64,000 nt of DNA, from NCBI GenBank assembly GCA_016182235.1, contig JACOXT010000003.1, positions 130,209 to 194,208 on the forward strand, read 5' to 3'. Shown piece after piece: positions 49,160-63,942 of the stretch (position 1 is the first letter of the stretch; each line of letters opens with the position of its first letter). The notes below the pieces were generated by a model that was not told where the DNA came from, did not search any database, and was given only the letters and a program-made list of their open reading frames with translations. Source of the DNA: Candidatus Levyibacteriota bacterium. GTDB taxonomy: Bacteria; Patescibacteriota; Microgenomatia; Levybacterales; UBA12049. The position numbers and the translations under genes are program-made.

Positions 49160-49197
49160 TTGACAAATATAATTACAGCATTTATTATATTAATATA
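49160..49197 (+). promoter_or_regulatory. Promoter TTGACA-17-TATTAT with an overlapping 12-bp palindrome TATATTAATATA; likely leaderless start at the ATG at 49197
   Basis: TTGACA at 49160-65, TATTAT at 49183-88, palindrome at 49186-49197. The ATG lies 8 nt after the -10. Confidence 0.5.
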
Positions 49198-49565
49198 TGT
49201 TCAATCGTTCATACATACAACTTCACAAAGGGCATCCTCATTACATGACAGACTCGAAAGCTTTATCCTTGCAAAAAAAGACCACATTGTCTATTGAAGA
49301 AGAAAAGCTTTTAATAATTGCACATAATCTCTCCAATCCCACAAAACTTAAAATCTATTCACTTCTGACAAGAGTAAAATCAATGCCTGTAACAGATATA
49401 AGTCTAATTTTAAATCTTTCTCAATCTGCAGTATCTCATGCATTGGCTGATTTAAGAAATCTGGGACTAGTAGAAAGTTATCGCTGTGGACAATTGATTT
49501 GTTATTCACTCAAAAGAGGTAAACAAAAGAATAAATTCTTAAGTTTTTTTGATAATTTTAATTAG
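49197..49565 (+). CDS. ArsR/SmtB-family transcriptional regulator (copy 1)
   Basis: LSNPTKLKIYSLL...VTDISLILNLSQSAVSHALADLRNLGLV. Confidence 0.8.
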   Translation: MFNRSYIQLHKGHPHYMTDSKALSLQKKTTLSIEEEKLLIIAHNLSNPTKLKIYSLLTRVKSMPVTDISLILNLSQSAVSHALADLRNLGLVESYRCGQLICYSLKRGKQKNKFLSFFDNFN

Positions 49566-49567
49566 CT

Positions 49568-50014
49568 ATGAAACCGTTTAACATTTTTGTAATTTTAATA
49601 CTAGCAATAATTACAATAGGATTTATCTTCTTTAAAGATATGTTTAATTTGCCTCAAAATAAAACTGAGAGCGAGAGTTCTAATAACCCTATTCTAATGG
49701 ATCGGATTAACTATCTTGATTACACAAAAGAGAGCTTAAATTCTTCGAAAGGATCTGGAAGGTCAGTTTTGTTTTTTGCGGCAACTACCTGGTGTCAGAC
49801 TTGTAGTCAGTTAGATAAAGAAATTAAAGAGAATGCCCAACGTTTGCCATCAGATGTAACTATTTTGAAAGTAGATTATGATAATGATAGGGAGATGAAA
49901 AGAGCATGGGGAATAACTATCCAACATACTCTTATTGTTTTGGATAAAGACGGCAAAGAAATCAAAAGATGGGTGGGAGGGAATTTCGATTTACTGCTTA
50001 GGGAGCTTTCTTAA
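49568..50014 (+). CDS. Membrane-anchored thioredoxin-fold protein (CxxC)
   Basis: N-terminal TM; FFAATTWCQTCSQLDKEI. Confidence 0.75.
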   Translation: MKPFNIFVILILAIITIGFIFFKDMFNLPQNKTESESSNNPILMDRINYLDYTKESLNSSKGSGRSVLFFAATTWCQTCSQLDKEIKENAQRLPSDVTILKVDYDNDREMKRAWGITIQHTLIVLDKDGKEIKRWVGGNFDLLLRELS

Positions 50015-50029
50015 GAGGAAAGGCTAGAT

Positions 50030-51037
50030 ATGAAATTTATTATACTAATTATCGGAATCATAGTTTTAATAATTTGGGTATTGATAAACATGCCAAAAAT
50101 ATGGACTCAGATTGATCAATCAAGAGGAGGAACACCGGTGCAAAAAGCAAGCCCCGGTGAAATTGTTGTAAGAAAAGTGTCTTTGCAAAATGATTTTACT
50201 GGAGCTAAGGTAAAACAAGAAGATCTATTGCAGGGGTGTTTTGGACAGGACTGCATTCCTTCTATTGACAGTCCGAAATTTGAATCAGCGCAGGATGCTA
50301 GCTGGTTAAGAGGTGAAGACAGAGTATTTGCAATTGATTATAAGGAAACTCAAAGAGCCTATCCACAAAGAATTTTGAATTGGCATGAGATTGTAAATGA
50401 TACTATAACAGGCGATCCAATTGTCATAACTTTTTGCCCTCTTTGTGGATCAGCTTTGGCATTTGAGCGAAAAGTTGACGGAGTAATCACCGAGCTTGGA
50501 GTATCCGGCAAACTGCATAACTCTGATTTAGTTATGTACGATAGATATGAAGGCAATTTATGGCAGCAAGTTACAGGCGAGGGAATTGTTGGTCCGGCGG
50601 CAAGAAGAAATGAGATTCTAAAACAAGTGCCGATAATAACTGTTCCGTGGGGGCAATGGAAAAAGGAACATCCAGGAACACAAGTTCTTTCAAGGGATAC
50701 GGGCCATAGCAGGAATTACGACCAATACCCCTATGGAACTTACGAACAGGATGATGAAATTTACTTCGGAGTTAAAGATCTAAACAGACAACTTCAAATA
50801 AAAACAGTAGTCTATGGAGTAGAGATAAATGGATCATCTAAGGCTTACCCTGAAAGTGTTTTTGATAAGAGAAAAGTAGTTGAGGACACGGTTGGAAATA
50901 CAGCAATAAGATTGGAAAGAACTGACTCAGGACAAATTAAAGTCACTAACTTGCAAACCCAAGAGGAAATCATTCCAATTCGGCTATTCTGGTTTGCCTG
51001 GGCAGCATTCCATCCGGATACAGAGCTTTTTAAGTAA
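50030..51037 (+). CDS. DUF3179 domain protein (membrane-anchored)
   Basis: DCIPSIDSPKF, YPQRILNWHEIVND, ITFCPLCGS, GVSGKLHNSDLVMYDR..GNLWQQ. Confidence 0.8.
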   Translation: MKFIILIIGIIVLIIWVLINMPKIWTQIDQSRGGTPVQKASPGEIVVRKVSLQNDFTGAKVKQEDLLQGCFGQDCIPSIDSPKFESAQDASWLRGEDRVFAIDYKETQRAYPQRILNWHEIVNDTITGDPIVITFCPLCGSALAFERKVDGVITELGVSGKLHNSDLVMYDRYEGNLWQQVTGEGIVGPAARRNEILKQVPIITVPWGQWKKEHPGTQVLSRDTGHSRNYDQYPYGTYEQDDEIYFGVKDLNRQLQIKTVVYGVEINGSSKAYPESVFDKRKVVEDTVGNTAIRLERTDSGQIKVTNLQTQEEIIPIRLFWFAWAAFHPDTELFK

Positions 51038-51260
51038 TCCTTGATGACAATTGTAGAAAAAATCCGATAATAATTAGTATCATACCTAATAAGGTTAACC
51101 AAATTTCATTAGAGATTTCCGAGACCACAGACTTATCAATTTTGCGTTCTCTCCTAACTCCCAGATGAACTTTAAGAATGGAATATCCAATTAGGAGTTC
51201 GCCTAAAGTGGTGAGTATGAAACCAAATGCCGGCAGAGTCATATTTTTAGTGTAACACAT
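51030..51260 (-). CDS. Small two-TM membrane protein (hypothetical)
   Basis: Two hydrophobic helices. Convergent 8-nt overlap with the DUF3179 gene. Confidence 0.45.
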   Translation of the reverse strand: MCYTKNMTLPAFGFILTTLGELLIGYSILKVHLGVRRERKIDKSVVSEISNEIWLTLLGMILIIIGFFLQLSSRIT

Positions 51261-51270
51261 TTAGGAGCTC

Positions 51271-51318
51271 TTGACAGACAGATTTTAAAGATGTATTATT
51301 TGAATAATCGTTCAAATA
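51271..51318 (+). promoter_or_regulatory. Promoter TTGACA-17-TATTAT plus operator TATTTGAA-N6-TTCAAATA
   Basis: TTGACA at 51271-76 and TATTAT at 51294-99. A perfect 8-bp inverted repeat at 51297-51318 overlaps the -10. The same operator recurs at 53581-53602. Confidence 0.7.
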
Positions 51319-51320
51319 GT

Positions 51321-51632
51321 ATGGATAAACACTCTTGGATTAAAAAGAAATTAGGTAATAAAAAAGAACTGGTTGAGTGTGCCAAGCAGCTGGGAGTTGT
51401 TGGTGACACTACCAGACTCAAGATTTGTTATCTTCTCTGCAATTATCCAGAGATAAGTGTTGGCGATATGGCAGAAATATTAGATACCTCTGTTTCCGTT
51501 GTTTCCCATAGCGTTAAGAAACTTCTTAAACTTGATCTTGTAAAAAGAAGAAAGGAAGCTCAGACAGTATATTACTCGCTTGCAAAGAACGAGTTTACAA
51601 GGACTTTGAGAGATTTCATTACGAGTCTATGA
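51321..51632 (+). CDS. ArsR/SmtB-family metal-sensing regulator (copy 2)
   Basis: TTRLKICYLLCNYPEISVGDMAEILDTSVSVVSHSVKKL. Start moved to the ATG at 51321 because 51291 lies inside the promoter/operator. Confidence 0.8.
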   Translation: MDKHSWIKKKLGNKKELVECAKQLGVVGDTTRLKICYLLCNYPEISVGDMAEILDTSVSVVSHSVKKLLKLDLVKRRKEAQTVYYSLAKNEFTRTLRDFITSL

Positions 51633-51838
51633 AAAATAATGAATCAAAAATGAACAATTGGATTTTTCTTGCTGCTATTTTCTGCTGCGGATTGCCTTTA
51701 TTGCTTCTTTTGGGCGCAGGGTCAGCTTTTGCGCTAGGCATAAGTTTCTTAACAGACAATCTAATCTTTCTGATTTTAGGACTGGTTTTTGCTTTTGTAT
51801 TTATCTGGTTGTTTATAAAAAGGAGAGTTGGTGAGTAA
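51629..51838 (+). CDS. Small two-TM protein with a vicinal Cys pair in TM1 (MerT/MerF-like)
   Basis: AAIFCCGLPLLLLLGAG resembles the CC-x-x-P motif of the first TM helix of mercury transporters. Confidence 0.5.
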   Translation: MKNNESKMNNWIFLAAIFCCGLPLLLLLGAGSAFALGISFLTDNLIFLILGLVFAFVFIWLFIKRRVGE

Positions 51839-52397
51839 TTCTAGTATGGTAAAAATTACAAGTACTATAATTGTGATTGCGGTTGTGGTTCTCGGACTTC
51901 TTACAACAGACGTTATCAAATTTGGGGAGTCGAGTTCTGAGACTAAAGTCTCATCGCAAGTTCAGACTGCTGGTTTGTCCATCGGAGACAAGGCTCCGGA
52001 TTTTACACTTACTACTATTGATGGCGTAAATTTGACGCAAAGCAATCTTCAGGGAAAAATTCTGGTAATTACATCTGGTGCTGCCTGGTGCCCAACCTGC
52101 ATTATTGAAAATAAAAATTTCAATCCAGTTTTTAAGGAAGTCAAAGATAAAGGAGTTGAGTTTATAACAGTTGACATAGACCCGATAGATGACGAAGTGG
52201 CAATTGCTGAATTTCAAAGACTTTATGCGCCTTGGCATAATGTTTCGCAAGAAAACGCAAAGAAAATGATTGAAGATTATGGATTTTGGAGATTTGAAAT
52301 TACTTATATTGTAGATAGAGAAGGAATTATCCGCTTTAAAGATGGTGGTATTACCTCAACAGAAACTCTACGCAACGAGCTTGGTAAACTAATATGA
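51828..52397 (+). CDS. Membrane-anchored TlpA-like thiol:disulfide oxidoreductase (redoxin fold)
   Basis: GKILVITSGAAWCPTC. Confidence 0.8.
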   Translation: MVSNSSMVKITSTIIVIAVVVLGLLTTDVIKFGESSSETKVSSQVQTAGLSIGDKAPDFTLTTIDGVNLTQSNLQGKILVITSGAAWCPTCIIENKNFNPVFKEVKDKGVEFITVDIDPIDDEVAIAEFQRLYAPWHNVSQENAKKMIEDYGFWRFEITYIVDREGIIRFKDGGITSTETLRNELGKLI

Positions 52398-53056
52398 TTG
52401 ATTCGGGACTATTAATACTTGCTTCTACCTCCGGCATTTTTGCTTTTTTTACACCATGCAGCGTGGCCTTGATTCCCGGCTTTGTAGGTTTTCTCGTGAA
52501 GACTGACGACGAAGGCAAGATATTAAGAGGGGTGAAAGTCGGGTTAGTTTCTGCTTTGGGGCTTTTGACTGTTTTTATGGGGCTGGGACTCCTGATAAGT
52601 TTGTTTGGCAATTTTATAGCGCCTTTTACATTCTTTATTGGCGTTACTGCCGGAGTGATACTGATTATTTTGGGTCTGTATCTTCTGGCAGGGAAAACGA
52701 TAGGTGTGGCTATTCCTAATTCGATAGGGGAAAATCGCGGAGTTAAAGGATATTTTTTATTTGGAGCGACTTATGGACTTGCCTCTTTGAGCTGCACTTT
52801 GCCTATTTTTCTTCTGGTAATGTTTCAGGCTTTGTCTGTAGGCGGAGCAAAAGCGGGAATACTGATCTTTTTAATTTACAGCGCAACAGCAGCCTCTTTT
52901 ATGGCGCTGACTGCTTTTGCAGCTATTCTATCCAAGGATTTAGTGAGAAATTACCTTGGAAAAGCATTGCCTGTTGTAACAAGACTTAGCCCAATTCTAA
53001 TAATATTGGCAGGAATGTATCTGATATATTTTCAGTTAAGAGCTTTTTATTTATGA
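52394..53056 (+). CDS. ccdA: CcdA/DsbD-type transmembrane thiol-disulfide electron transporter
   Basis: FFTPCSVALIPGFVG and ASLSCTLPIFL, one conserved Cys in each half. Confidence 0.75.
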   Translation: MIDSGLLILASTSGIFAFFTPCSVALIPGFVGFLVKTDDEGKILRGVKVGLVSALGLLTVFMGLGLLISLFGNFIAPFTFFIGVTAGVILIILGLYLLAGKTIGVAIPNSIGENRGVKGYFLFGATYGLASLSCTLPIFLLVMFQALSVGGAKAGILIFLIYSATAASFMALTAFAAILSKDLVRNYLGKALPVVTRLSPILIILAGMYLIYFQLRAFYL

Positions 53057-53574
53057 GAGAGGTTTACTTGGCAATAATAAACGTTTTTAAGGAAAGAAAT
53101 TATTTTTTGGCTTTTGTACTTATAGCAATGGTCTTTTTTGCGCTGTTTATTTTTATTCCTGTTTTCACTATTCCAGGAAATGATCTTGGGTTTCAACTGT
53201 CCATTTACTCGCAAAAGGACTATGTTCTGATGTTTTTATTAGCCGCTCTGGTAGGACTTAATTTGGCCTTGCAAGTTTATATTTTTAGAAAACAAAGAGA
53301 GGAACGCAGGTTAACTCAGTCAACAGGTCAATTAGCAGTGTCGGGAATTTCTGGAGTATTTGGAGCAGTTGTTGGGACAGCGGCCTGTGCATCATGTCTT
53401 GCATTCTTTTTCGGACTTATTGGGTTGGGAGCAGGAAGCGTCATTTTTGTTTTGAATAATCAAATATATTTTTTTGTTGGCGCAATAATTTTGCTCTTAA
53501 TTTCTCTATATTTTACAGCTCGAAAAGTTAATGGTGTCTGTGAATCTTGCCATATTGACAAAGCGAAAACATAG
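53053..53574 (+). CDS. Integral membrane protein with an intramembrane CASC and a C-terminal CESC motif (unknown; candidate metal or thiol handling)
   Basis: VGTAACASCLAFFFGLIGLG; NGVCESCHIDKAKT. Confidence 0.5.
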   Translation: MREVYLAIINVFKERNYFLAFVLIAMVFFALFIFIPVFTIPGNDLGFQLSIYSQKDYVLMFLLAALVGLNLALQVYIFRKQREERRLTQSTGQLAVSGISGVFGAVVGTAACASCLAFFFGLIGLGAGSVIFVLNNQIYFFVGAIILLLISLYFTARKVNGVCESCHIDKAKT

Positions 53575-53602
53575 AGTTACTATTTGAATAGTTGTTCAAA
53601 TA
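53555..53602 (+). promoter_or_regulatory. Internal promoter TTGACA-17-TACTAT plus a second copy of the operator TATTTGAA-N6-TTCAAATA, upstream of the merA-like gene
   Basis: TTGACA at 53555-60, TACTAT at 53578-83, inverted repeat at 53581-53602. Confidence 0.65.
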
Positions 53603-53608
53603 AATATT

Positions 53609-55009
53609 ATGGATACTTATGATTTAATTATCATCGGCGGCGGAGCAGGAGCTTTTGCTGCGGCTATCAAAGCCAATGAACTTGGCGCAAAAACTTTGAT
53701 GGTTAATAAAGGATTACCTCTCGGTGGAACTTGCGTCAATGTGGGTTGTGTTCCTTCCAAGACTTTACTTTGGGCAGGGGAAGTAATGCACCTTGCCAAA
53801 AACCATAAAATTCCGGGAATTGATATGGAAGTAAAAAACTTCGATTTTGCAACTGTTCTTCAGCATGAACTCGATCTTGTTGCAAAATTAAGAGAAGAAA
53901 AATATGAGAAGGTGCTAAGGAATTTAGAAAACGTCACTCATTTAGAAGGACGCGCATCTTTTGTGTCTGCAAATGAAATTGAGGTTAATGGTCAGAAATA
54001 TCAAGGAAAGAAATTTATTATTGCCGCCGGATCAACAACTACAGTACCGCCGATTGAAGGTATTAAGGAGGTAGGCTTTATAACCCATATTGAAGCCTTA
54101 AAACTTAAAGAACAGCCAAAAGAACTGATTGTTATTGGTGCGGGTCCTGTAGGGCTTGAGTTTGCCCAAATGTATGCCCGGTTCGGCACGAAGGTAACAA
54201 TTCTTCATAGAGGCTCAACTATTTTTAGAGGTGAAGAAGAATTGACCACAAGATTGGCAGAGATACTGACTGATGAAGATATTACTATTAAAACAAATGT
54301 CCAAGTGAAAAGTGCGAGAAAAGAAGGCGACAAAAAGATTGTTTCCTATCTTGTTGAGGGCAAGCAGGAAGAAGTAGTGGCAGATGAAGTTTTACTCGCC
54401 GTTGGCAAAACACCAAATACGAAAGATCTAGGACTTGATAAAGCCGGCATTGAAATTGATGAAAAACAAGCAATCAAAGTAAGTCCCAATTTTCAAACTT
54501 CTCAACAGTATGTTTATGCGGTAGGCGATGTAATAAACTTACCCATAAGACAAGAACCGACAGCAGGTAGAGAAGGAACATTAGCTGCTGAAAATGCTCT
54601 GAAAAATACGCAAAATAGTATTGACTACAATACTGTTCCCTGGACTATTTTTACAGACCCGCAACTTGCAGGAGTTGGATTTACCGAGGAGGAACAGATG
54701 AAACGGTTTGGAACGTGTATGTGTAAGGCTGTCTCTTTCAAAGATATACCTAAAGCTATTATTTTAAATAGAACCGAAGGACTTATTAAGATGGCAATTC
54801 ACCCAGAAACAAAACAAATTATGGGGGTTCATATTCTGGCGCCTAATGCGGGAGAGTTAATCGCGCAAGCTATGATTCTTATTAAAAATAAAAATACTAT
54901 TGACGATGTTGTTAATTCCCTGCCGATGTTTCCGACACTTTCCGAGGCTATTAAAATTGCCGCCCTATCCTTTACCCAAGACATTACCAAACTTAGTTGT
55001 TGTGTTTAG
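53609..55009 (+). CDS. merA: Mercuric reductase-like FAD-dependent disulfide oxidoreductase (core MerA without the NmerA domain)
   Basis: Redox-active GGTCVNVGCVPSK and a C-terminal vicinal cysteine pair ...ITKLSCCV, as in MerA. Confidence 0.7.
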   Translation: MDTYDLIIIGGGAGAFAAAIKANELGAKTLMVNKGLPLGGTCVNVGCVPSKTLLWAGEVMHLAKNHKIPGIDMEVKNFDFATVLQHELDLVAKLREEKYEKVLRNLENVTHLEGRASFVSANEIEVNGQKYQGKKFIIAAGSTTTVPPIEGIKEVGFITHIEALKLKEQPKELIVIGAGPVGLEFAQMYARFGTKVTILHRGSTIFRGEEELTTRLAEILTDEDITIKTNVQVKSARKEGDKKIVSYLVEGKQEEVVADEVLLAVGKTPNTKDLGLDKAGIEIDEKQAIKVSPNFQTSQQYVYAVGDVINLPIRQEPTAGREGTLAAENALKNTQNSIDYNTVPWTIFTDPQLAGVGFTEEEQMKRFGTCMCKAVSFKDIPKAIILNRTEGLIKMAIHPETKQIMGVHILAPNAGELIAQAMILIKNKNTIDDVVNSLPMFPTLSEAIKIAALSFTQDITKLSCCV

Positions 55010-55011
55010 CT

Positions 55012-55677
55012 ATGAATAGTAAACTTTGGTATTTAAAACAATTAAATCTTTTTAAATCATTACCTCAAAAAGAGGTCGAGATGCTTTCGCACAATCTGGT
55101 GATGAAGGAATACGGCAAGAGGAAAGTTATTTTAGAGCCCGAAGATAGCGATAAAGTTTTTATATTAAAGATGGGGAGGGTAGAAATATATGAACTGACC
55201 CCTGATGGCAAAAAGATCATTGTGGATATCCTTACCCCAGGGAATGTTTTTGGGGACTTAGGTGTTGAAGAAACAAATGAGAATTTTGTAGAAGCCACAA
55301 CAAATTCACTTGTTTGTGTTATGAAAAAACAGGAATTCTTCGAGATGGTATCTAAAAACCTGGCTGTTTCTTATCAGCTGATTCGGGAGCTGTTCCAAAA
55401 AACTGTTGAAGATAAAAAAACTGTTGCAGCATTAGCTTCTGATAGTTTACTCACTAAGGTCAAAAACTTACTATTAAGATTGGCTAAAAGATATGGAGAG
55501 AAAAAAGAAAATACAGTAACCATAGCTGCTAAGTTTACTCATGAGGAGTTGGCAGACATGGTGGGAATTTCCCGTCCAACGATGACTGAACTGCTTAATA
55601 AACTAGATCGCATAGGGGTTATTAAAAGAGTAGGAAAAATTATTACATTTGATCCCCGGAAACTTGCTGAGATATAG
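55012..55677 (+). CDS. Crp/Fnr-family transcriptional regulator (no FNR Cys cluster)
   Basis: cNMP-binding-like beta-roll followed by a C-terminal HTH HEELADMVGISRPTMTELLNKL. ATG at 55012 preferred over the TTG at 54997. Confidence 0.85.
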   Translation: MNSKLWYLKQLNLFKSLPQKEVEMLSHNLVMKEYGKRKVILEPEDSDKVFILKMGRVEIYELTPDGKKIIVDILTPGNVFGDLGVEETNENFVEATTNSLVCVMKKQEFFEMVSKNLAVSYQLIRELFQKTVEDKKTVAALASDSLLTKVKNLLLRLAKRYGEKKENTVTIAAKFTHEELADMVGISRPTMTELLNKLDRIGVIKRVGKIITFDPRKLAEI

Positions 55678-55681
55678 CATT

Positions 55682-55702
55682 TTGTCGCCCGAATGACAGA
55701 AT
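55682..55702 (+). promoter_or_regulatory. CRP-geometry site 1: TTGTCGCCCGAATGACAGAAT
   Basis: Core TGTCG-N6-TGACA. TATAGT begins 30.5 bp from the site centre, the class II activator geometry. Confidence 0.65.
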
Positions 55703-56940: not shown

Positions 56941-56961
56941 TTGTCGCCTGGATGACAGAAT
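56941..56961 (+). promoter_or_regulatory. CRP-geometry site 2: TTGTCGCCTGGATGACAGAAT
   Basis: 18 of 21 nt identical to site 1. TAGAAT at 56979-84 begins 29.5 bp from the centre. The predicted TSS is at or next to the ATG at 56992 (leaderless). Confidence 0.65.
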
Positions 56962-56991: not shown

Positions 56992-57324
56992 ATGAAAGGA
57001 ATAGCTACGTGTCAAAATTGCATTATTGAGCTGTGGAAAAATGATTGCGAACATTGTGAGGCTGTTAAGCCCATTGTCGCGGAGCTTGAAAAAGAAGGAT
57101 ATGTTTTTGAAAAACACAATATTGAAGAAAAAGATGGAGAAACTCTGTGGCATGAGTATGCCGAGGAAATTGAGAAAAATAATAAAAGCATGGGATATGA
57201 TGAAGGGTATATTTATACACCAACATTTATTAATCCAGACAACAGAAACATTATTGCGTTTACCGATCGTGAGCCGACTAAAACTGAGTTAATCCGGTTT
57301 GCGGAAGGAGGCGAACCAAAATGA
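56992..57324 (+). CDS. Thioredoxin/glutaredoxin-fold protein with a CEHC motif
   Basis: IIELWKNDCEHCEAVKPIVAELEKEG. Confidence 0.65.
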   Translation: MKGIATCQNCIIELWKNDCEHCEAVKPIVAELEKEGYVFEKHNIEEKDGETLWHEYAEEIEKNNKSMGYDEGYIYTPTFINPDNRNIIAFTDREPTKTELIRFAEGGEPK

Positions 57325-57461
57325 TGGGGCATGGAAAACACGATAACTGCGCGATGTGCAGAATGGGAAAAGCTGTTGGGATGATAGAAAAGCATCCTGA
57401 GGGCTGTGAGTGCGAAACTCATCCAAAGAAGAAAGATGAAAGAGAAAACTATGGTAAATAA
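57321..57461 (+). CDS. Cys/His-rich micro-protein A (46 aa; absent from the ORF track)
   Basis: Hand translation MMGHGKHDNCAMCRMGKAVGMIEKHPEGCECETHPKKKDERENYGK. SD GGAGG lies 9 nt upstream. ATGA overlap with the upstream stop and 11-nt overlap with the gdh start. A paralog lies at 59433. Confidence 0.7.
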   Translation: MMGHGKHDNCAMCRMGKAVGMIEKHPEGCECETHPKKKDERENYGK

Positions 57462-58743
57462 TAATCCCTGGAAAAGAGCACAAAAACAATTACGGAAAGC
57501 GGCAAGGTATATCAAGCTTGATCCTCTAACGCTCGCAAAACTATCAAATCCTGATAGGGTGGTTGAGGTTTCTCTGCCTATAAAACTTGGCAGTGGCGAA
57601 ATAAAGGTTTTTCAAGGTTATAGAGTTCAACATAATAATATCAGAGGTCCCTATAAAGGTGGGCTAAGATATCATCAAAAGGTGGACATGGATGAAGTAA
57701 AAGCTTTGGCTTTTTGGATGACTATAAAAAATGCAGTGGTAAACGTGCCGTTTGGTGGTGGTAAAGGCGGTATTGCAGTTGATCCCAAGACTCTTGAGGA
57801 ATTGGAGCTTGAAAAACTCACCCGCCAGTTTACCAGAAAAATTGCAGACTTTATTGGCCCTCAAAAAGATGTCCCAGCGCCTGATGTAAATACTAATCCT
57901 AAAATCATGTCTTGGATTAAGAATGAATATAGCAATCTAACGGGTCAAGATTCGCCTGCGGTGGTAACTGGTAAGCCTATTGAGGATGGGGGTTCGCAAG
58001 GCAGAACTGAAGCTACAGGATTGGGTGGCGTTTACGCTTTGTTGACTGTTTTAAGCAAATTAGGTAAAGATCCCAAAGGGATGAGTGTGGCTATCCAGGG
58101 TTTTGGTAATGTGGGGAGTTTTTTGGCTAAATTTTTACAAAAAGAGGGATTTAAAGTTGTAGCGCTATCAGATTCTAAGGGTGGAATTTATATTCCGGAT
58201 GGCATAAGGGATATTGATGAAGTTAAGCGTTGTAAAGAAGAAAAAGGACTACTGGCTGGATGCTATTGCGTTGGTTCTGTCTGTGATCTAAAAAATATGA
58301 AAAACTTAGGAGGAAAAAATATTGAAGCCGATAAAGTTTTAACTCTTCCTGTTGATATCATTGTACCTGCTGCTTTAGAAAACTCAATTACCAAAGAGAA
58401 TGCTGAAAAGATAACAGCAAAGATAATACTAGAAATGGCTAATGGTCCGACAACATTAGAAGCGGATGAAATATTGCAAAAAAAGGACGTTGTGGTAATA
58501 CCGGATATTTTAGCAAACTCTGGAGGCGTGGCTGTTAGTTACTTTGAGTGGTATCAAAATTTAAACAGTAAGCACTGGGGTAAGGAAGAAGTGTTTAAGA
58601 AGCTAAGGGAAAAAATGGAAAAAGCTACAGGTAAAGTACTTGATACTTCTAATAAATATGGCGTTAGTTTAAGAGAAGCCGCATACATAGTCGCTTTAAA
58701 TAGGATTCAAGAAAAGAGCCAAAATATTTTGTCGTTGAAATAA
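57451..58743 (+). CDS. gdhA: Glutamate dehydrogenase (Glu/Leu/Phe/Val dehydrogenase family)
   Basis: VNVPFGGGKGGIAVDPK. Start moved to the ATG at 57451 (MVNNNPWKRAQKQL). Confidence 0.9.
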   Translation: MVNNNPWKRAQKQLRKAARYIKLDPLTLAKLSNPDRVVEVSLPIKLGSGEIKVFQGYRVQHNNIRGPYKGGLRYHQKVDMDEVKALAFWMTIKNAVVNVPFGGGKGGIAVDPKTLEELELEKLTRQFTRKIADFIGPQKDVPAPDVNTNPKIMSWIKNEYSNLTGQDSPAVVTGKPIEDGGSQGRTEATGLGGVYALLTVLSKLGKDPKGMSVAIQGFGNVGSFLAKFLQKEGFKVVALSDSKGGIYIPDGIRDIDEVKRCKEEKGLLAGCYCVGSVCDLKNMKNLGGKNIEADKVLTLPVDIIVPAALENSITKENAEKITAKIILEMANGPTTLEADEILQKKDVVVIPDILANSGGVAVSYFEWYQNLNSKHWGKEEVFKKLREKMEKATGKVLDTSNKYGVSLREAAYIVALNRIQEKSQNILSLK

Positions 58744-58749
58744 CAGAAT
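58729..58749 (+). promoter_or_regulatory. CRP-geometry site 3: TTGTCGTTGAAATAACAGAAT (overlaps the gdh stop codon)
   Basis: 16 of 21 nt identical to site 1. TATACT at 58767-72 begins 29.5 bp from the centre. Confidence 0.55.
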
Positions 58750-59432: not shown

Positions 59433-59576
59433 ATGATGGGGCATGGAAAACACGATAACTGCGCGATTTGTCAAATGGGAAAAGCTGTTGGTATGATAGA
59501 AAAATGTACAGATAAAAATTGTACTAATCCAGTTCATAAAAAAGAGAAAGAGGAGGAAATTAAAAAAAGTGAGTAG
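59433..59576 (+). CDS. Cys/His-rich micro-protein B (47 aa; absent from the ORF track)
   Basis: Hand translation MMGHGKHDNCAICQMGKAVGMIEKCTDKNCTNPVHKKEKEEEIKKSE. SD GGGAGGTGA. 8-nt overlap with the GTG start of the downstream glutaredoxin-like gene. Confidence 0.7.
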   Translation: MMGHGKHDNCAICQMGKAVGMIEKCTDKNCTNPVHKKEKEEEIKKSE

Positions 59577-59868
59577 TAAAAACAAACTTATCTTTTATGG
59601 AGCTGACTGGTGTCCGGATTGTAGAAGATCTAAGCAATTTCTGGATGAAAAAGGAATTGAGTATGAATATATAAATATCGAGGAAGTGCCGGGAGCAGCT
59701 AAAGAGGTAGAAAGAATTAACAATGGTTACCAGTCAATTCCAACTATTGTTTTTCCTGACGGGAAAGTGCTTGTTGAACCATCCAATGCTGAGTTGGAAA
59801 AAGCACTGGAAGAAAATAAAAATCTGATTATTGTTCATAAAAGCGACATGGAAGGAGGTGGTAAATAA
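59569..59868 (+). CDS. Glutaredoxin/NrdH-like small redoxin (CPDC)
   Basis: LIFYGADWCPDCRRSKQFLDEKGIEYEYINI. Confidence 0.8.
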   Translation: MSSKNKLIFYGADWCPDCRRSKQFLDEKGIEYEYINIEEVPGAAKEVERINNGYQSIPTIVFPDGKVLVEPSNAELEKALEENKNLIIVHKSDMEGGGK

Positions 59869-60065
59869 TGGATGCTAATTTAAAATGCCCGACGTGCGGT
59901 GGTCAGTTTAACTCTCAACAGGAGTTGGATGAACATGCAAAAGGGACTCACAGTAACCAAGCAGGTGAGGAGCAACAGGAACATTCAATAAGTTGTTCAA
60001 AGTGTGGTTTAAAAGCAAACTCCAAAGTGGAGCTTGAAGAACATGAGCAACACCACAGTATGTAA
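59868..60065 (+). CDS. 65-aa protein with two classical C2H2 zinc-finger motifs
   Basis: CPTCGGQFNSQQELDEHAKGTH (C-x2-C-x3-F-x5-L-x2-H-x4-H) and CSKCGLKANSKVELEEHEQHH. Confidence 0.7.
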   Translation: MDANLKCPTCGGQFNSQQELDEHAKGTHSNQAGEEQQEHSISCSKCGLKANSKVELEEHEQHHSM

Positions 60066-60110: not shown

Positions 60111-61442
60111 ATGAAAAAATTTGATGTTTTGGTTGTCGGCAGTGGAGCTGGTCTTGAGGTGGCTTCATTTGCTGCAGAACGCGGTATGTCTGTTGCAGTA
60201 GTTGAGGAAGGTCCGCTGGGCGGAACATGTCTTAATCGCGGCTGTATTCCCTCTAAAATATTGATTCATTCGGCAGATGTTGCTGAGACTATTAAAAAAT
60301 TCGGGATTAAAAGCAAGATTGAAAATATTGATTTTGCAGCGATTGTAAAAAGAGTTTCTCAAGTTGTGGATGGTGACTCAAGTGGTATTGAAAAGGCAAT
60401 AAGACAAGGCAATAATCCAAACCTTTATAAAATGCGTGGTAAGTTTATCGGTCCAAAACTTATGCAAGTTGGCTCCGAACAAATAGAGGCAGACAAAGTG
60501 TTTATTGTGGGTGGAACAAGACCCTCTATTCCGCCAATTCCAGGCTTGAAAGATACACCATTTCTAGATAGTACAAAAGCATTAAGACTTGAAAAACAAC
60601 CGGAACATCTGGTAATTATAGGCGGTGGTTATATTGCGGCAGAGCTTGCTCATTTTTATGGATCACTCGGAACAAAGGTTACTATTCTAGTTCGGGGCAA
60701 TATCATGTTAAGTAACGAGGATGAAGAAATAGCACAATGGTTTACAAAAGAATTTATTAAGAAACATGAAATCCTCTTCAGCACGAAGGTAAGTAGTGTT
60801 TCTTATCATGATGAAATTTTTAATATTGGATTAAATGATGGGAAGAAATTGGAAGCGGACCAATTGCTGATTGTCACAGGAAGGATTCCTAATACCGATA
60901 TTTTGAATGTTAAAGCAACAGGGGTTGAAACGGACGAAAAAGGATATATAAAAGTAAACGAGTATTTGGAAACTAATGTAAACGGTGTCTTTGCATTCGG
61001 AGATATTATTGGGATTTTACCCTTTAGGCATACTGCCAATGATCAAGTTAGCTTTGCAATCAGAAACGCATTTACAGAAAAGAAGATTCCTGTCAACTAT
61101 TTTGCCATTGGTCATGCAGTATTTTCCTCTCCCCAAGTCGGTGGAGTTGGTAAAACCGAGGAGGAGTTAAAAAAGGAAGGAGTTTCATATAAAGTTGGCA
61201 GAGCAGAGTTAAAAGATACAGGTATGGGAGGAGCATTGCAAGAAAATGGTCTTGCTAAAGTTCTGGCAGATCAGGAGGGAAATATTTTAGGAGTTCATAT
61301 AGTTGGCCCACAAGCTTCAGTTTTAATTCATGAAGCAATAGTCGCCATGAAGGCAAATGGAACAGTCAGTGCTATTACCGATTCCGTTTATATTCACCCG
61401 GCTTTGCCTGAATGGCTGCAAAGAGCATTTTTTGCAATATGA
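60111..61442 (+). CDS. Class I FAD-dependent pyridine nucleotide-disulfide oxidoreductase (lipoamide/mycothione-reductase-like; not MerA)
   Basis: GGTCLNRGCIPSK; C-terminal HIHPALPE His-Glu dyad; no C-terminal Cys pair. Confidence 0.8.
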   Translation: MKKFDVLVVGSGAGLEVASFAAERGMSVAVVEEGPLGGTCLNRGCIPSKILIHSADVAETIKKFGIKSKIENIDFAAIVKRVSQVVDGDSSGIEKAIRQGNNPNLYKMRGKFIGPKLMQVGSEQIEADKVFIVGGTRPSIPPIPGLKDTPFLDSTKALRLEKQPEHLVIIGGGYIAAELAHFYGSLGTKVTILVRGNIMLSNEDEEIAQWFTKEFIKKHEILFSTKVSSVSYHDEIFNIGLNDGKKLEADQLLIVTGRIPNTDILNVKATGVETDEKGYIKVNEYLETNVNGVFAFGDIIGILPFRHTANDQVSFAIRNAFTEKKIPVNYFAIGHAVFSSPQVGGVGKTEEELKKEGVSYKVGRAELKDTGMGGALQENGLAKVLADQEGNILGVHIVGPQASVLIHEAIVAMKANGTVSAITDSVYIHPALPEWLQRAFFAI

Positions 61443-63049
61443 GTAGTAAAACCCAGCTTAATTGGTCAAGAAAAGTTGTTGTTTATCAAATTTATCCGCG
61501 AAGTTTTAAGGACAGCAATAATGATGGTATTGGTGATTTGCAAGGGATAATCGACAAGCTCGATTATCTGAATGACGGAACAGAAAAATCTCTTGGCATT
61601 GATGCAATTTGGCTTTCTCCCATCTATAAATCTCCTATGATTGATTTCGGTTACGACATTTCAGATTATCTGGATATAGATCCTGTTTTTGGCGATCTTG
61701 AAATATTCGATCGTTTCATAAAAGAGGCCCATAAACGCAATATAAAAGTTATTATGGATTTTGTTGCAAATCATACTTCAGATAAGCACATTTGGTTTAA
61801 AGAGTCTAGGTCTTCAAGGCATAATTCAAAAAGAGATTGGTATATTTGGAAAGACCCAAAACCTGATGGATCACCACCCAATAATTGGCTTAGTGTGTTT
61901 GGCGGTTCTTCTTGGGCTTTGGATAAAAGAACAAATCAGTATTATCTCCATAGTTTTTTACCTGAGCAGCCTGATTTAAATTGGCGAAATATTGAGGTAA
62001 AAACAGCAATGGAAAAGGTATTGGAATTTTGGATTCACAAAGGCGTTGACGGTTTTCGATCCGATGCTTCTTACCATTTGATAAAAGATGATCAATTTCG
62101 AGACGATCCTGGAAATCCAAACTACAAAGGCCCTAAAAATTCTTACAAAAGATTTCTCCATATCTATAGTCAGGGTCGGCCTGAAGCTTTAGATACTATA
62201 AACACTTTTTGTTCGATTCTGGGACTTCATAAAGATAAATATATTGTCAGTGAGGCCTATCTTGATATCCCCGAAATGACCAAACTTTACAAAGCTTGTT
62301 CCAATGGCCTCCATGCTCCGTTTAACTTTAATCTTATATCGCTTCCATGGGACGCACAAATAGTAAAAAGCCACATAGATAATTTTGAGGCATCCCTTAA
62401 TAAAAATGATTGGCCAAATTATGTATTAGGCAATCACGACAGACAGCGCGTGGTTTCACGTGTTGGCAAGAAAAGAGCAAAATTGTTAGCTATGCTACTT
62501 TTCACCTTGCGGGGCATGCCTTTTGTGTATTATGGCGAAGAGATTGGCATGGAGAATGTCGGCCTATCTTCCGATAAGCAAAAAGATTTAGTTGGGAATC
62601 GTCTAACAGCAAATCGAGATGGTGAAAGAACACCCATGCAATGGGACGAATCGGCGCATGCCGGTTTTTCTATTGTTAAACCATGGTTGCCAGTGGGAGA
62701 AAAATACAAAGATGTAAATGTCAAGAAAGAATTAAACGATCCCATATCTATGCTTCGTTTGTACCGTCATCTTATTCATTATCGTACTCATAATCATGTT
62801 CTTCTTCACGGATCCTATCGTTCATTAGGCTTTGGCAATAGAAATGTCTTTGCTTTTCTTCGCGAACTTGGTGATGAAAAAATTCTTGTTATATTAAATT
62901 TTTCAAAAGACGAAGAATCTGTTTCCCTTCCCTATCAAAAAGCAAAAGTTGTATGTACTACAAATAGAGAAAAAGAGGGAGAAACTATTAATATCAAAAA
63001 GATAATTTTGTTCGCATATCAAGGGTATGTGATGGAGGTGATTGAGTAA
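61439..63049 (+). CDS. GH13 alpha-glucosidase / oligo-1,6-glucosidase family enzyme
   Basis: YQIYPRSFKDSNNDGIGDLQGI, DFVANHTS, GVDGFRSDA, VSEAY, GNHD. ATGA overlap, so start moved to 61439. Confidence 0.88.
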   Translation: MSSKTQLNWSRKVVVYQIYPRSFKDSNNDGIGDLQGIIDKLDYLNDGTEKSLGIDAIWLSPIYKSPMIDFGYDISDYLDIDPVFGDLEIFDRFIKEAHKRNIKVIMDFVANHTSDKHIWFKESRSSRHNSKRDWYIWKDPKPDGSPPNNWLSVFGGSSWALDKRTNQYYLHSFLPEQPDLNWRNIEVKTAMEKVLEFWIHKGVDGFRSDASYHLIKDDQFRDDPGNPNYKGPKNSYKRFLHIYSQGRPEALDTINTFCSILGLHKDKYIVSEAYLDIPEMTKLYKACSNGLHAPFNFNLISLPWDAQIVKSHIDNFEASLNKNDWPNYVLGNHDRQRVVSRVGKKRAKLLAMLLFTLRGMPFVYYGEEIGMENVGLSSDKQKDLVGNRLTANRDGERTPMQWDESAHAGFSIVKPWLPVGEKYKDVNVKKELNDPISMLRLYRHLIHYRTHNHVLLHGSYRSLGFGNRNVFAFLRELGDEKILVILNFSKDEESVSLPYQKAKVVCTTNREKEGETINIKKIILFAYQGYVMEVIE

Positions 63050-63052
63050 ATT

Positions 63053-63583
63053 ATGAACAACGAAAAAAAACTTTTAAAATTTAGAAAAGAAAAAGACATC
63101 GCTTGGAAAAATGATAAAGAATCGCCTTTAACTGAGGAACAGAGAAGAATTTTTGAAGGATTAAATTATTTTCCATCTAATCGTAATTTGAGTTTTGAGC
63201 TGTTGCTTAATAAAAACGTTCCCGATGCAGGCAAAGAGGTAACTATTAAAACTACAGGCGGAGAGGAACAGGTTTATTTAAGAGCTGGGAAAGTTAGATT
63301 CAGAGTTGAGGGTATTGATGTTGAAGCAATTGTTTTTGAAGATCCTGAGCAGGAACAGTTTCAGTATTGTCTACTTTTTAGAGACCTAACAACTGGGAAA
63401 GAGACCTATAAAAATGGCAGGATGTTACAAATTCCAAAAAAAGGAGACAAGTTAGTTGTTGACTTTAATTATGCCTATAATCCCTATAGTTCCTACAATG
63501 ATAATTGGGATTGTCCAATTACACCAGAAAAAAATGTGTTGCCTGTTGCAATTAAAGCCGGAGAAAAGAAGTTTAATTCATGA
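63053..63583 (+). CDS. DUF1684 domain protein
   Basis: YAYNPYSSYNDNWDCPITPEKNVLPVAIKAGEKKF. Confidence 0.75.
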   Translation: MNNEKKLLKFRKEKDIAWKNDKESPLTEEQRRIFEGLNYFPSNRNLSFELLLNKNVPDAGKEVTIKTTGGEEQVYLRAGKVRFRVEGIDVEAIVFEDPEQEQFQYCLLFRDLTTGKETYKNGRMLQIPKKGDKLVVDFNYAYNPYSSYNDNWDCPITPEKNVLPVAIKAGEKKFNS

Positions 63584-63942
63584 AGTCGCTGCTTTTTGTT
63601 TATAATGCTGACTCGTCTTTATTTAATCAAATTGGTGATTTAATTCACAAAACTATTTCTCCTAAAACCTATCAATGTAATTTATGCGGGCTAACTTACT
63701 CGGGAATAAGTATGAAAAGCGGCTGGAAAGATTTTATCAACTCGTTACCCATTAAAGCAGTGTTTCTACACAAGGATGAATTTCTTAAGCAATATCCTAA
63801 TATGCAGAATACAAATTTTCCCATAGCTTTTACCAAACAAAATAATAATCTGGTAGAACTAATTTCAACACAGGAAATAAACCAGGCAAAAAGTTTGGAA
63901 GAATTGGAAAAACTGATTTTAGAAAAAACGCTACGATTTTAA
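63580..63942 (+). CDS. Hypothetical protein with a CxxC motif
   Basis: LLFVYNADSSLFNQIGDLIHKTISPKTYQCNLCGLTY. Family not recognised. Confidence 0.5.
   Translation: MKSLLFVYNADSSLFNQIGDLIHKTISPKTYQCNLCGLTYSGISMKSGWKDFINSLPIKAVFLHKDEFLKQYPNMQNTNFPIAFTKQNNNLVELISTQEINQAKSLEELEKLILEKTLRF

Follow-up and report, generated by a model that had tools for sequence, protein, structure and literature searches.

Why does a bacterium belonging to the Candidate Phyla Radiation (CPR) keep a small protein made of two eukaryote-type zinc fingers, and why does the gene for it lie among genes for thiol-disulfide enzymes? The question is raised by a stretch of 64,000 nucleotides from a Candidatus Levyibacteriota genome (assembly GCA_016182235.1, contig JACOXT010000003.1, positions 130,209 to 194,208), which is called the window in the following. 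It contains a short gene, here termed ZF, whose product is a 65-residue protein with four Cys and six His residues, MDANLKCPTCGGQFNSQQELDEHAKGTHSNQAGEEQQEHSISCSKCGLKANSKVELEEHEQHHSM. The coordinates of this and all other features are listed in Table 1. Classical C2H2 fingers have been described as 'practically absent in bacteria', with 489 bacterial examples or 0.003% of proteins in UniProt 2013 (PMC3541406), and the zinc-finger literature on bacteria centres on Ros/MucR (PMC9779718, PMC11241148). The original prediction, made from the DNA letters alone, regarded ZF as a zinc- or thiol-redox-responsive nucleic-acid binder or a zinc buffer. Judged from its relatives, ZF is one architecture among the modular, putatively metal-binding Cys/His mini-proteins that are specific to the Daviesbacteria/Levybacteria clade. 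The data argue that the property under selection is metal binding alongside thiol-disulfide enzymes and not the recognition of specific bases.

A spurious or decaying open reading frame (ORF) that acquired its motif by chance would be in line with the shortness of ZF and with the annotation of its homologues, which are all merely 'hypothetical protein'. This explanation is, however, effectively refuted. Both motifs, C-x2-C-x3-F-x5-L-x2-H-x4-H and C-x2-C-x12-H-x3-H, were re-read in the ORF with exactly the spacings initially claimed. For the pattern C..C.{12}H.{3,5}H, all six frames together contained two matches, each of them within ZF, compared with a mean of 0.085 matches (maximum 1) in 200 shuffled versions. 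The start codon of ZF (ATG, 59868-59870) shares one base with the stop codon of the preceding glutaredoxin-like gene (TAA, 59866-59868), which confirms the overlap TAATG noticed at the outset, and a Shine-Dalgarno sequence lies upstream. Comparison with nine orthologous genes from related contigs gave nonsynonymous divergences (dN) of 0.15-0.36 with saturated synonymous divergence (dS), and dN/dS ratios of 0.06-0.23 wherever dS could be computed. Because of the Shine-Dalgarno sequence, the 1-nt overlap, the low dN/dS ratios and a family of 61 conserved clusters with invariant ligands and conserved synteny, we conclude that ZF is a genuine gene under purifying selection, carrying a two-finger motif far beyond chance expectation. 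Its G+C content (42%) is slightly higher than that of the window (36.5%).

Finger 1 shows the classical spacing C7-x2-C10-x3-F14-x5-L20-x2-H23-x4-H28. Its core residue F14 is invariant, and position 20 is occupied by L, M or I in the homologues. Finger 2 reads C43-x2-C46-x12-H59-x3-H63, with H62 as an alternative ligand at x2 spacing; A50 stands at the usual aromatic position, and L56 varies among L, M, I, K, P and V. In the search with zinc-finger profiles that had been proposed, the protein passed the gathering thresholds of both zf-C2H2_4 (29.3 bits, cut-off 27) and zf-C2H2 (27.2 bits, cut-off 25.2). Finger 2 alone stays below the Pfam threshold, since variants possessing only this finger give no Pfam match. 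The sole match in an NCBIfam scan of ZF, the putative zinc-binding family ECs_2282, was sub-threshold (21.6 bits versus a cut-off of 37). The closest sequences in the PDB belong to designed consensus fingers, namely Aart (1.8e-9) and 1mey (1e-6).

AlphaFold2 (AF2) predicted two hairpin-plus-helix units of the beta-beta-alpha type, with a mean predicted local distance difference test (pLDDT) score of 75.3 when run on one sequence; an alignment of 36 sequences gave 74.4, and here the five models ranged from 69.8 to 74.4. The linker residues 34-37 scored below 50, and the length of the linker varies among homologues. In a Foldseek search of the PDB, all 50 of the 50 matches listed were classical C2H2 fingers, with probabilities of 0.82-1.0. 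That the E-values were no better than about 0.01 is due to the very small size of the domain, and the high root-mean-square deviations are due to the lack of a fixed arrangement of the two fingers. A family profile run against 1.84 billion representative sequences matched 38,321 proteins, headed by long poly-zinc-finger proteins with up to 65 matched stretches. This exhaustive scan confirms the type of domain and is uninformative on other bacterial relatives, so it was discarded as a source of these. According to the model, ZF consists of two independent classical C2H2 fingers joined by a flexible, acidic linker. The claim that the fingers are of the classical and not of the Ros/MucR type is thus borne out by the profile thresholds, the predicted fold and the structural matches.

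Where does such a protein occur? A single-sequence search revealed 14 clusters of homologues and a profile search 61, all of them 52-76 residues long, and every named homologue derives from metagenome-assembled genomes (MAGs) of Candidatus Daviesbacteria or Levybacteria. Scanning one genome per GTDB species (185,579 in total) yielded 12 loci, located in Daviesbacteria/Levyibacteriota MAGs and in some labelled 'uncultured Gammaproteobacteria'. The latter label, found on 'binchicken' MAGs (L002/L008, L009, L011, L014 and L018 in our numbering of loci), appears to be a placeholder or mislabel because the gene content of these MAGs matches that of the Daviesbacteria loci. In the suggested phylogenetic survey, members of the ZF family thus came only from the Daviesbacteria/Levybacteria clade of the Microgenomates, in keeping with the CPR origin presumed in the original prediction. 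A viral origin was rejected, as the family patterns picked out no viral relative in IMG/VR and the matches in PHROGs were marginal (E at least 9e-4). Also rejected were a role in anti-phage defence, for which PADLOC gave one marginal match for ZF (E 0.0015) and none for its neighbours, and a ribosomally synthesized and post-translationally modified peptide precursor, since the full length is conserved with no split into leader and core and no maturation or export genes. We found no description of the family in the literature; a full-text search for 'zinc finger' and 'Daviesbacteria' returned only a paper on mer genes.

The variation within the family indicates which features matter. Module classes were assigned by motif patterns to 62 sequences, that is, the 61 clusters plus the window protein, some members being truncated or devoid of a second module. 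The two-finger architecture is present in 36 of them. Among these 36, residues C7, C10, F14, H23, H28, C43, K45, C46 and H59 are invariant, and G11, E38, H39, S44, G47 and K49 are conserved to at least 90%. The Cys and His ligands are accordingly kept in the orthologues, seven of the eight being invariant, and only the fourth ligand of finger 2 varies. Neither a missing finger fold nor poorly conserved ligands, either of which would have counted against the original prediction, was thus encountered. In 14 of the 62 sequences, finger 1 is replaced by CxxCxCxCxxHxxHxH, designated the 'NB' module. Here, a six-residue deletion has taken out F14 and the start of the helix, which makes a beta-beta-alpha finger impossible; the aligned C, C, H and H are nevertheless retained and two Cys have been gained. 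In finger 2, 15 of the 62 sequences, across architectures, carry a C-terminal H-x-C-x2-C in place of the final His ligands. Three homologues (P0055, P0057 and P0058) no longer have a Cys knuckle in finger 1, P0059 combines the NB module with finger 1, and P0060 and P0061 are in-frame fusions of a 47-residue Cys/His mini-protein to finger 2. The fusion genes hold the position of ZF in the locus, just 5' of the reductase gene, and P0060 is present on 16 contigs and is therefore not an assembly error. What is kept across architectures are the metal ligands and the motif EH-x3-C-x-K-C-G-x-K, while the 'recognition' helices, by which DNA would be read, vary. Thus, invariant ligands, His-to-CxxC swaps in finger 2, the exchange of finger 1 and the fusions with the mini-protein all point to metal binding as the conserved property.

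These results bear directly on the possibility that ZF is a two-finger transcription or RNA regulator of the redox operon, responding to zinc or to thiol oxidation. In fold and profile, ZF conforms to classical C2H2 fingers, and the hairpin lysines K45 and K49 of finger 2 are conserved. There are precedents in the single finger of the archaeal virus protein AFV1p06, which binds DNA (PMC3541406), and in Loz1, whose two C2H2 fingers confer zinc-dependent DNA binding (PMC11761706). ZF is, however, an acidic protein (pI 5.34, net charge -6) without any Arg, and acidity extends to the entire family, whose medians are a pI of 5.8 and a net charge of -3. Glu residues occupy helix positions +3 and +6 in both fingers, the linker is acidic and disordered and comprises 14 residues instead of the TGEKP type, and finger 1 is dispensable or exchangeable. 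Together with the His/Cys swaps, these properties argue against a base-specific reading of nucleic acids.

Moreover, the operon seems to be supplied with a more conventional regulator. A conserved dyad box, TTGTCG-N6-CGACAGAA, is located a few bases past the stop codon of a Crp/Fnr-family gene as well as 5' of the mini-protein, redoxin and ZF genes. Allowing for up to one mismatch, the window contains eight matches compared with 2.0 ± 1.5 in shuffled sequence, and none of 100 shuffles reached eight. The box recurs in at least seven related loci (L002, L004, L009, L010, L012, L020 and L022), with the equivalent copy in L012 preceding its LUD gene. Orthologues of the Crp/Fnr-family gene were found 5' of the mini-protein and ZF genes in L001, L002, L004, L009, L010, L012, L020 and L022. 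The canonical CRP (TGTGA-N6-TCACA) and FNR (TTGAT-N4-ATCAA) boxes were not found 5' of the operons, where the actual box reads TGTCG-N6-CGACA, and a consensus scan for promoters and terminators between 55600 and 64000 gave counts equal to the shuffled expectation. The 5-6-5 palindrome suits a dimeric helix-turn-helix protein in its layout. It is likely the operator of a Crp/Fnr-type regulon distinct from the classic CRP and FNR boxes; the Crp/Fnr-family protein is the probable regulator of the island and would bind the box. As the box adjoins the Crp/Fnr gene, the operon would already have both a regulator and an operator. A dyad of 16-18 bp, typical of a dimeric helix-turn-helix protein and placed by a Crp/Fnr gene in at least seven loci, together with ArsR, MarR or HxlR genes nearby, adds to the points above and leads us to regard ZF as a quite improbable nucleic-acid binder. 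Were its role limited to that of a small DNA-binding regulator, the protein would remain a rare bacterial case of the classical fold.

The second part of the initial question concerns the enzymes. Mapping by tblastn and gene calls revealed the conserved order (mini-protein) - thioredoxin-fold protein - ZF - (FMN reductase) - flavoprotein disulfide reductase - DUF1684 - 120-residue ORF, the genes in parentheses being optional. The redoxin/reductase context recognised in the original prediction is therefore real, and about 15 independent loci have conserved it. Directly 5' of ZF, 13 loci have a thioredoxin-fold gene, often overlapping ZF or at most about 35 nt away, which encodes a 99-residue glutaredoxin-like protein with a WCPDC site, a CPYC glutaredoxin or a 110-residue protein with the motif WKNDCEHC. 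Orthologues of the last are the commonest genes in this position; the 110-residue protein has an additional N-terminal CQNC, has no match to a curated family and gives weak thioredoxin/DsbA matches in the PDB. For the 99-residue redoxin of the window, the top NCBIfam model was mycoredoxin (TIGR02200, 80.6 bits, below the cut-off of 89.5), and the nearest PDB structure was that of Mycobacterium tuberculosis Rv3198.1 (2lqo, 3e-10), which we take to be mycoredoxin-1.

Downstream of ZF, a class-I flavoprotein disulfide reductase of 443 residues (FDR443) carries the redox disulfide in GGTCLNRGC and the His-Glu dyad in HPALPE, and it lacks a C-terminal Cys pair. Its nearest solved structures are mycothione reductases (8qcj, 1e-76; 8rx4 and 8rx5, to 2.5e-71; 9lc9), with dihydrolipoyl dehydrogenases ranking behind, and it remained under every NCBIfam cut-off. 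An FDR443 orthologue follows ZF in 15 loci, with 64-82% identity where measured by tblastn. In L015, the genes 3' of ZF encode instead a thioredoxin (WCGPC) and a low-molecular-weight thioredoxin reductase, which links ZF to NAD(P)H-driven disulfide reduction in general. The loci L004 and L014 are rearranged and have pseudogenised glutamate dehydrogenase fragments 5' of ZF. Thus, a redoxin upstream, FDR443 with its His-Glu dyad downstream and the likeness of the two to mycoredoxin-1 and mycothione reductase connect ZF with thiol redox chemistry.

On this basis, we tentatively favour ZF as a zinc-binding accessory whose Cys2His2 sites would be zinc-thiolate centres that are labile to oxidants and are maintained by the redoxin and the reductase on either side, a reading we hold to be possible without calling it probable. 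ZF would be co-translated with the mycoredoxin-like thioredoxin-fold protein and the mycothione-reductase-like NAD(P)H flavoenzyme and act as their accessory. When oxidants or electrophiles cause stress, the finger Cys thiolates would become oxidised and zinc would be released, making the protein a zinc-thiolate switch or a small and labile store of zinc. Powered by the reductase, the redoxin encoded next to ZF would then re-reduce the oxidised protein, whereupon zinc could rebind and ZF refold. Since there are only two metal sites per 65 residues, a switch or accessory appears more plausible than a bulk buffer. We infer that zinc is most likely the bound metal, and the inference extends to the redox lability, to the path of the electrons and to the physiological role given here. 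Of the role first envisaged for ZF, the nucleic-acid part is thus disfavoured, and the zinc- and thiol-linked metal-binding part fits better, on grounds of context.

Several observations speak against this accessory function. The functional link between ZF and the redox enzymes consists of synteny only, Cys2His2 sites are less prone to oxidation than Cys4 sites, and two sites per 65 residues provide a small buffering capacity. The orthologue P0003 in L007 lacks the fourth ligand of finger 2. The confidence of the AF2 model is moderate (pLDDT about 75), and the top structural matches are DNA-bound fingers. In addition, the invariant or nearly invariant residues K45, K49, E38 and H39 could form a surface for docking or for contacts with nucleic acids.

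The docking variant would make ZF a structural-zinc adaptor, with stable fingers that bind to the reductase or the thioredoxin-fold protein as a subunit or specificity factor and with cysteines that have no redox role. Many eukaryotic C2H2 fingers do work by protein-protein contacts. The tight translational coupling of ZF to the enzyme genes, the invariance of the four surface residues in an otherwise variable acidic protein, the adjacency of the reductase in 15 loci and the retention of the fusion proteins at the same position are all in agreement with an adaptor. Nevertheless, one fixed docking interface is awkward to reconcile with the family, because unrelated Cys/His clusters can stand in for finger 1, which may also be without its Cys knuckle, the helix and ligands of finger 2 vary, and the downstream partner is either a flavoprotein disulfide reductase, an FMN reductase plus such a reductase, or a thioredoxin/thioredoxin reductase pair. 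We therefore consider an adaptor rather doubtful.

Metals other than zinc have to be considered as well, as ZF could serve as a Hg, Cu or Cd chaperone for a metal-resistance island or as a rubredoxin-like iron electron carrier for the flavoenzyme. The island in the window holds the mercuric reductase homologue MerA, two ArsR genes, DsbD_TM and thioredoxins; L001 encodes a cupredoxin, and L020 and L021 have a weakly MerC-like CPLC membrane protein 3' of the reductase. ZF also possesses two CxxCG knuckles, as do rubredoxins, and some haloarchaeal C(P)XCG proteins bind non-zinc metals (PMC11241148). The adjacent reductase, however, is equipped with the His-Glu dyad of disulfide reductases. FDR443 was rejected as a MerA-like metal reductase since the HPxxxE dyad is present in it and the C-terminal Cys pair absent, in contrast to the MerA of the window. 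Both the predicted beta-beta-alpha fold and the His ligands, which are invariant, agree with zinc sites, neither rubredoxin nor HMA families were among the 25 best Pfam matches of ZF, and the MerC match was sub-threshold. A carrier of another metal is hence even less probable than a nucleic-acid binder, and our ranking runs from the redox-labile zinc accessory through the structural-zinc adaptor and the nucleic-acid binder to the other-metal carrier.

A broader proposal goes beyond ZF itself. Daviesbacteria/Levybacteria might possess a combinatorial toolkit of Cys/His modules, shuffled and fused at one locus, which would cooperate in trans with a mycoredoxin/mycothione-reductase-like system as its zinc/thiol relays or switches; we consider this unlikely as it stands. 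The modules are the classical C2H2 finger, the finger with a C-terminal CxxC, the CxxCxCxCxxHxxHxH cluster and the 47-residue H2C3-4 mini-protein. The last is assigned to the same pool as ZF on account of its fusion to finger 2 in some relatives, and its own family of 55 clusters is likewise confined to Daviesbacteria/Levybacteria. Neither this mini-protein nor its 46-residue paralogue in the window has a Pfam or NCBIfam family. Both (MMGHGKHDNCxxCxMGKAVGMIEK...) have invariant H4, H7, C10, C13 and C30 residues, and each of the two genes overlaps a thioredoxin-fold neighbour.

What would follow from these readings? In any case, the ZF family provides a conserved bacterial C2H2 finger that is under purifying selection and occurs as a free-standing module within an enzyme operon. 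If the accessory role were true, proteins of 52-76 residues would offer a minimal and tractable model for C2H2 functions unrelated to DNA, such as zinc sensing or redox switching, and a view into thiol and metal homeostasis in the CPR, including a possible mycothiol-like system outside Actinobacteria. If the toolkit of relays or switches were true, it would represent the first eukaryote-type C2H2 finger in bacterial thiol-redox or metal homeostasis as opposed to nucleic-acid recognition, and might be connected with a low-molecular-weight thiol of the CPR that resembles mycothiol and has yet to be described.

A further observation relates to such a thiol. In a closely related MAG, a ZF variant is located beside a four-gene cluster (L004 1781..5486, identical to L014 3733..7438) encoding a GT4 protein with MshA as the top NCBIfam match, a His_Phos_1 protein, a 402-residue CysRS-like protein without the anticodon-binding part, and in this respect MshC-like, and a PIG-L deacetylase. 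All scores were below the curated cut-offs except that for cysS, and the cluster is not in the 64-kb window. It may specify a mycothiol-like low-molecular-weight thiol pathway in a CPR bacterium.

Table 1. Features of the window discussed in the text; positions refer to the first letter of the window as position 1
Feature	Position	Strand	Basis and remarks
Two-finger C2H2 mini-protein gene (ZF)	59868..60065, stop included	+	ORF list, Pfam, dN/dS, family
Ribosome-binding site of ZF, GGAGG	59854..59858	+	Within 3' end of glutaredoxin-like gene, 9 nt 5' of ATG; read from sequence
Finger 1, residues 7-28, CPTCGGQFNSQQELDEHAKGTH	59886..59951	+	Best Pfam stretch, residues 6-28; predicted beta-hairpin and helix
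Inter-finger linker, 14 residues, Q/E-rich, SNQAGEEQQEHSIS	59952..59993	+	Holds the nearly invariant E38-H39
Finger 2, residues 43-63, CSKCGLKANSKVELEEHEQHH	59994..60056	+	C-x2-C-x12-H-x2/3-H; predicted beta-hairpin and helix
Glutaredoxin-like gene, 99 aa, WCPDC active site	59569..59868	+	Pfam Glutaredoxin, 3.7e-13
Class-I flavoprotein disulfide reductase gene (FDR443), 443 aa	60111..61442	+	Pfam Pyr_redox_2, Pyr_redox_dim
47-aa Cys/His mini-protein gene (MMGHGKHDNCAICQMGKAVGMIEKC...)	59433..59576	+	Overlaps glutaredoxin-like gene by 8 nt
46-aa Cys/His mini-protein gene, paralogue	57321..57461	+	ORF list, synteny
Second thioredoxin-fold gene, 110 aa, WKNDCEHC	56992..57324	+	Pfam Glrx-like, weak (3.7e-4); synteny
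Crp/Fnr-family regulator gene	54997..55677	+	Orthologues with cNMP_binding and HTH_Crp_2
Dyad box, exact, TGTCGCCCGAATGACAGA	55683..55700	+	6 nt past Crp/Fnr-family gene; placed likewise in L002, L009, L010, L012, L020 and L022
Dyad box, exact, TGTCGCCTGGATGACAGA	56942..56959	+	5' of 110-aa thioredoxin-fold gene
Dyad box, one mismatch, TGTCGTTGAAATAACAGA	58730..58747	+	5' of run LUD - 47-aa mini-protein - glutaredoxin-like - ZF - reductase
DUF1684 gene, conserved downstream partner of the reductase	63053..63583	+	Pfam, 6.9e-37; synteny
Alpha-amylase family gene	61412..63049		Start overlaps reductase stop
120-aa ORF	63580..63942		CNLCG motif, no Pfam family; overlaps DUF1684 stop
Metal/redox island	49197..55009		Two ArsR-type regulators, thioredoxin-like proteins, DUF3179, DsbD_TM, core-only MerA
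Membrane protein gene of the island	53053..53574		CASC and CESC motifs
merA of the window, 466 aa	53609..55009		TIGR02053, 514 bits (above cut-off); FPTLSE; ends SCCV; no N-terminal HMA

The remaining neighbours of ZF can be described briefly. The alpha-amylase family gene is placed between the reductase and DUF1684 genes in this window only. It is a lineage-specific insertion into the operon, because most of the other loci mapped have DUF1684 directly after the reductase and a few show other insertions. The 120-residue ORF is kept 3' of DUF1684 in L011, L013, L016 and L017. A 129-residue membrane protein is encoded between the reductase and DUF1684 genes in L020 (7179..7568) and L021 (5661..6050); it carries CPLC in its first hydrophobic segment and is the one with the weak MerC match (E 9e-4). 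With the GTG start given in the ORF list, the glutamate dehydrogenase gene shares 56 nt (57406..57461) with the gene for the 46-residue mini-protein. By comparison with L004, ATG 57451 (MVNNNPW...) is the likelier start, and the overlap would then amount to 11 nt. The occurrence of MerA in Daviesbacteria has been reported previously (PMC8261052).

How does ZF compare with known systems? With classical eukaryotic C2H2 proteins (TFIIIA/Zif268; PF00096, PF13894), it shares the ligand spacing, the F/L core of finger 1, the CPxCG knuckle and the predicted fold. It differs from them in being a bacterial, stand-alone protein of 65 residues with only two fingers that is encoded in a thiol-redox operon, in its long acidic linker in place of TGEKP, in its negative net charge and lack of Arg, and in a finger 2 whose fourth ligand is variable and whose aromatic residue is replaced by Ala; its finger 1 is, moreover, exchangeable with clusters that are not fingers. 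Measured against the DNA-binding arrays of the Zif268 type, ZF thus deviates in the linker (14 residues versus the seven of the TGEKP type), in the basic surface and in the DNA-contacting helix. Ros/MucR proteins, too, are bacterial and have a Cys2His2 zinc site. Ros contains a single C-x2-C-x9-H-x3/4-H finger embedded in a larger, basic globular DNA-binding domain of about 58 residues. ZF, in contrast, is acidic and has x12 spacing and two minimal fingers, and ROS_MUCR (PF05443) was not among its 25 best Pfam matches, all of which had E-values of at most 0.055. The Ros zinc finger is covered by reviews (PMC9779718, PMC5745721).

AFV1p06 and other fingers of archaea and archaeal viruses resemble ZF in their small size and eukaryote-type finger fold, usually with one or two fingers. 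AFV1p06 is a DNA-binding protein that is extended at both its N- and C-terminal ends and is missing the fourth His, and the study describing it found no bacterial homologues (PMC3541406); the ZF family is bacterial and resides in an enzyme operon. The haloarchaeal C(P)XCG micro-proteins are likewise shorter than 70 residues with two knuckles, which correspond to CPTCG (7-11) and CSKCG (43-47) in ZF, and are mostly of unknown function, with stress-related phenotypes for some (PMC11241148, PMC6562870). They mostly form single Cys4 domains, whereas each knuckle of ZF pairs with two His. ZF therefore falls into the C(P)XCG class by motif only, with no homology detected.

Three other assignments were rejected. 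The spacing H39-x3-C43-x2-C46 equals the ZAS motif of anti-sigma factors, but in ZF it lies in a predicted beta-hairpin, and there is neither an anti-sigma match in Pfam nor an adjacent sigma gene. Bacterial metallothioneins (SmtA/BmtA) have about nine Cys in about 55 residues and bind Zn4, whereas ZF has four Cys and no metallothionein among its 25 best Pfam matches. In rubredoxins, finally, two CxxCG knuckles with an aromatic core supply four Cys to one Fe; ZF has such knuckles, but each of them is paired with invariant His in a finger; P0055, P0057 and P0058 lack the first knuckle, and PF00301 was not among the 25 best Pfam matches.

The closest functional analogies are found among zinc sensors and redox switches. 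Pairs of C2H2 fingers act as zinc sensors in Zap1 (AD2) and Loz1 (PMC2535606, PMC11761706). Like ZF, they comprise two tandem classical fingers, with labile zinc binding used for sensing. They are, however, parts of large eukaryotic transcription factors, Loz1 still binds DNA, and the likeness in sequence is that of the domain only. Zinc-thiolate switches tied to thiol systems, with zinc release driven by oxidation, are represented by the N-terminal zinc domain of Escherichia coli thioredoxin-2, Hsp33 and RsrA. The common feature with ZF is the pairing of CxxC zinc sites with thioredoxin-fold proteins or reductases. The sites of these proteins are Cys4 or Cys3His centres in unrelated folds, whereas ZF is a separate polypeptide with C2H2 sites.

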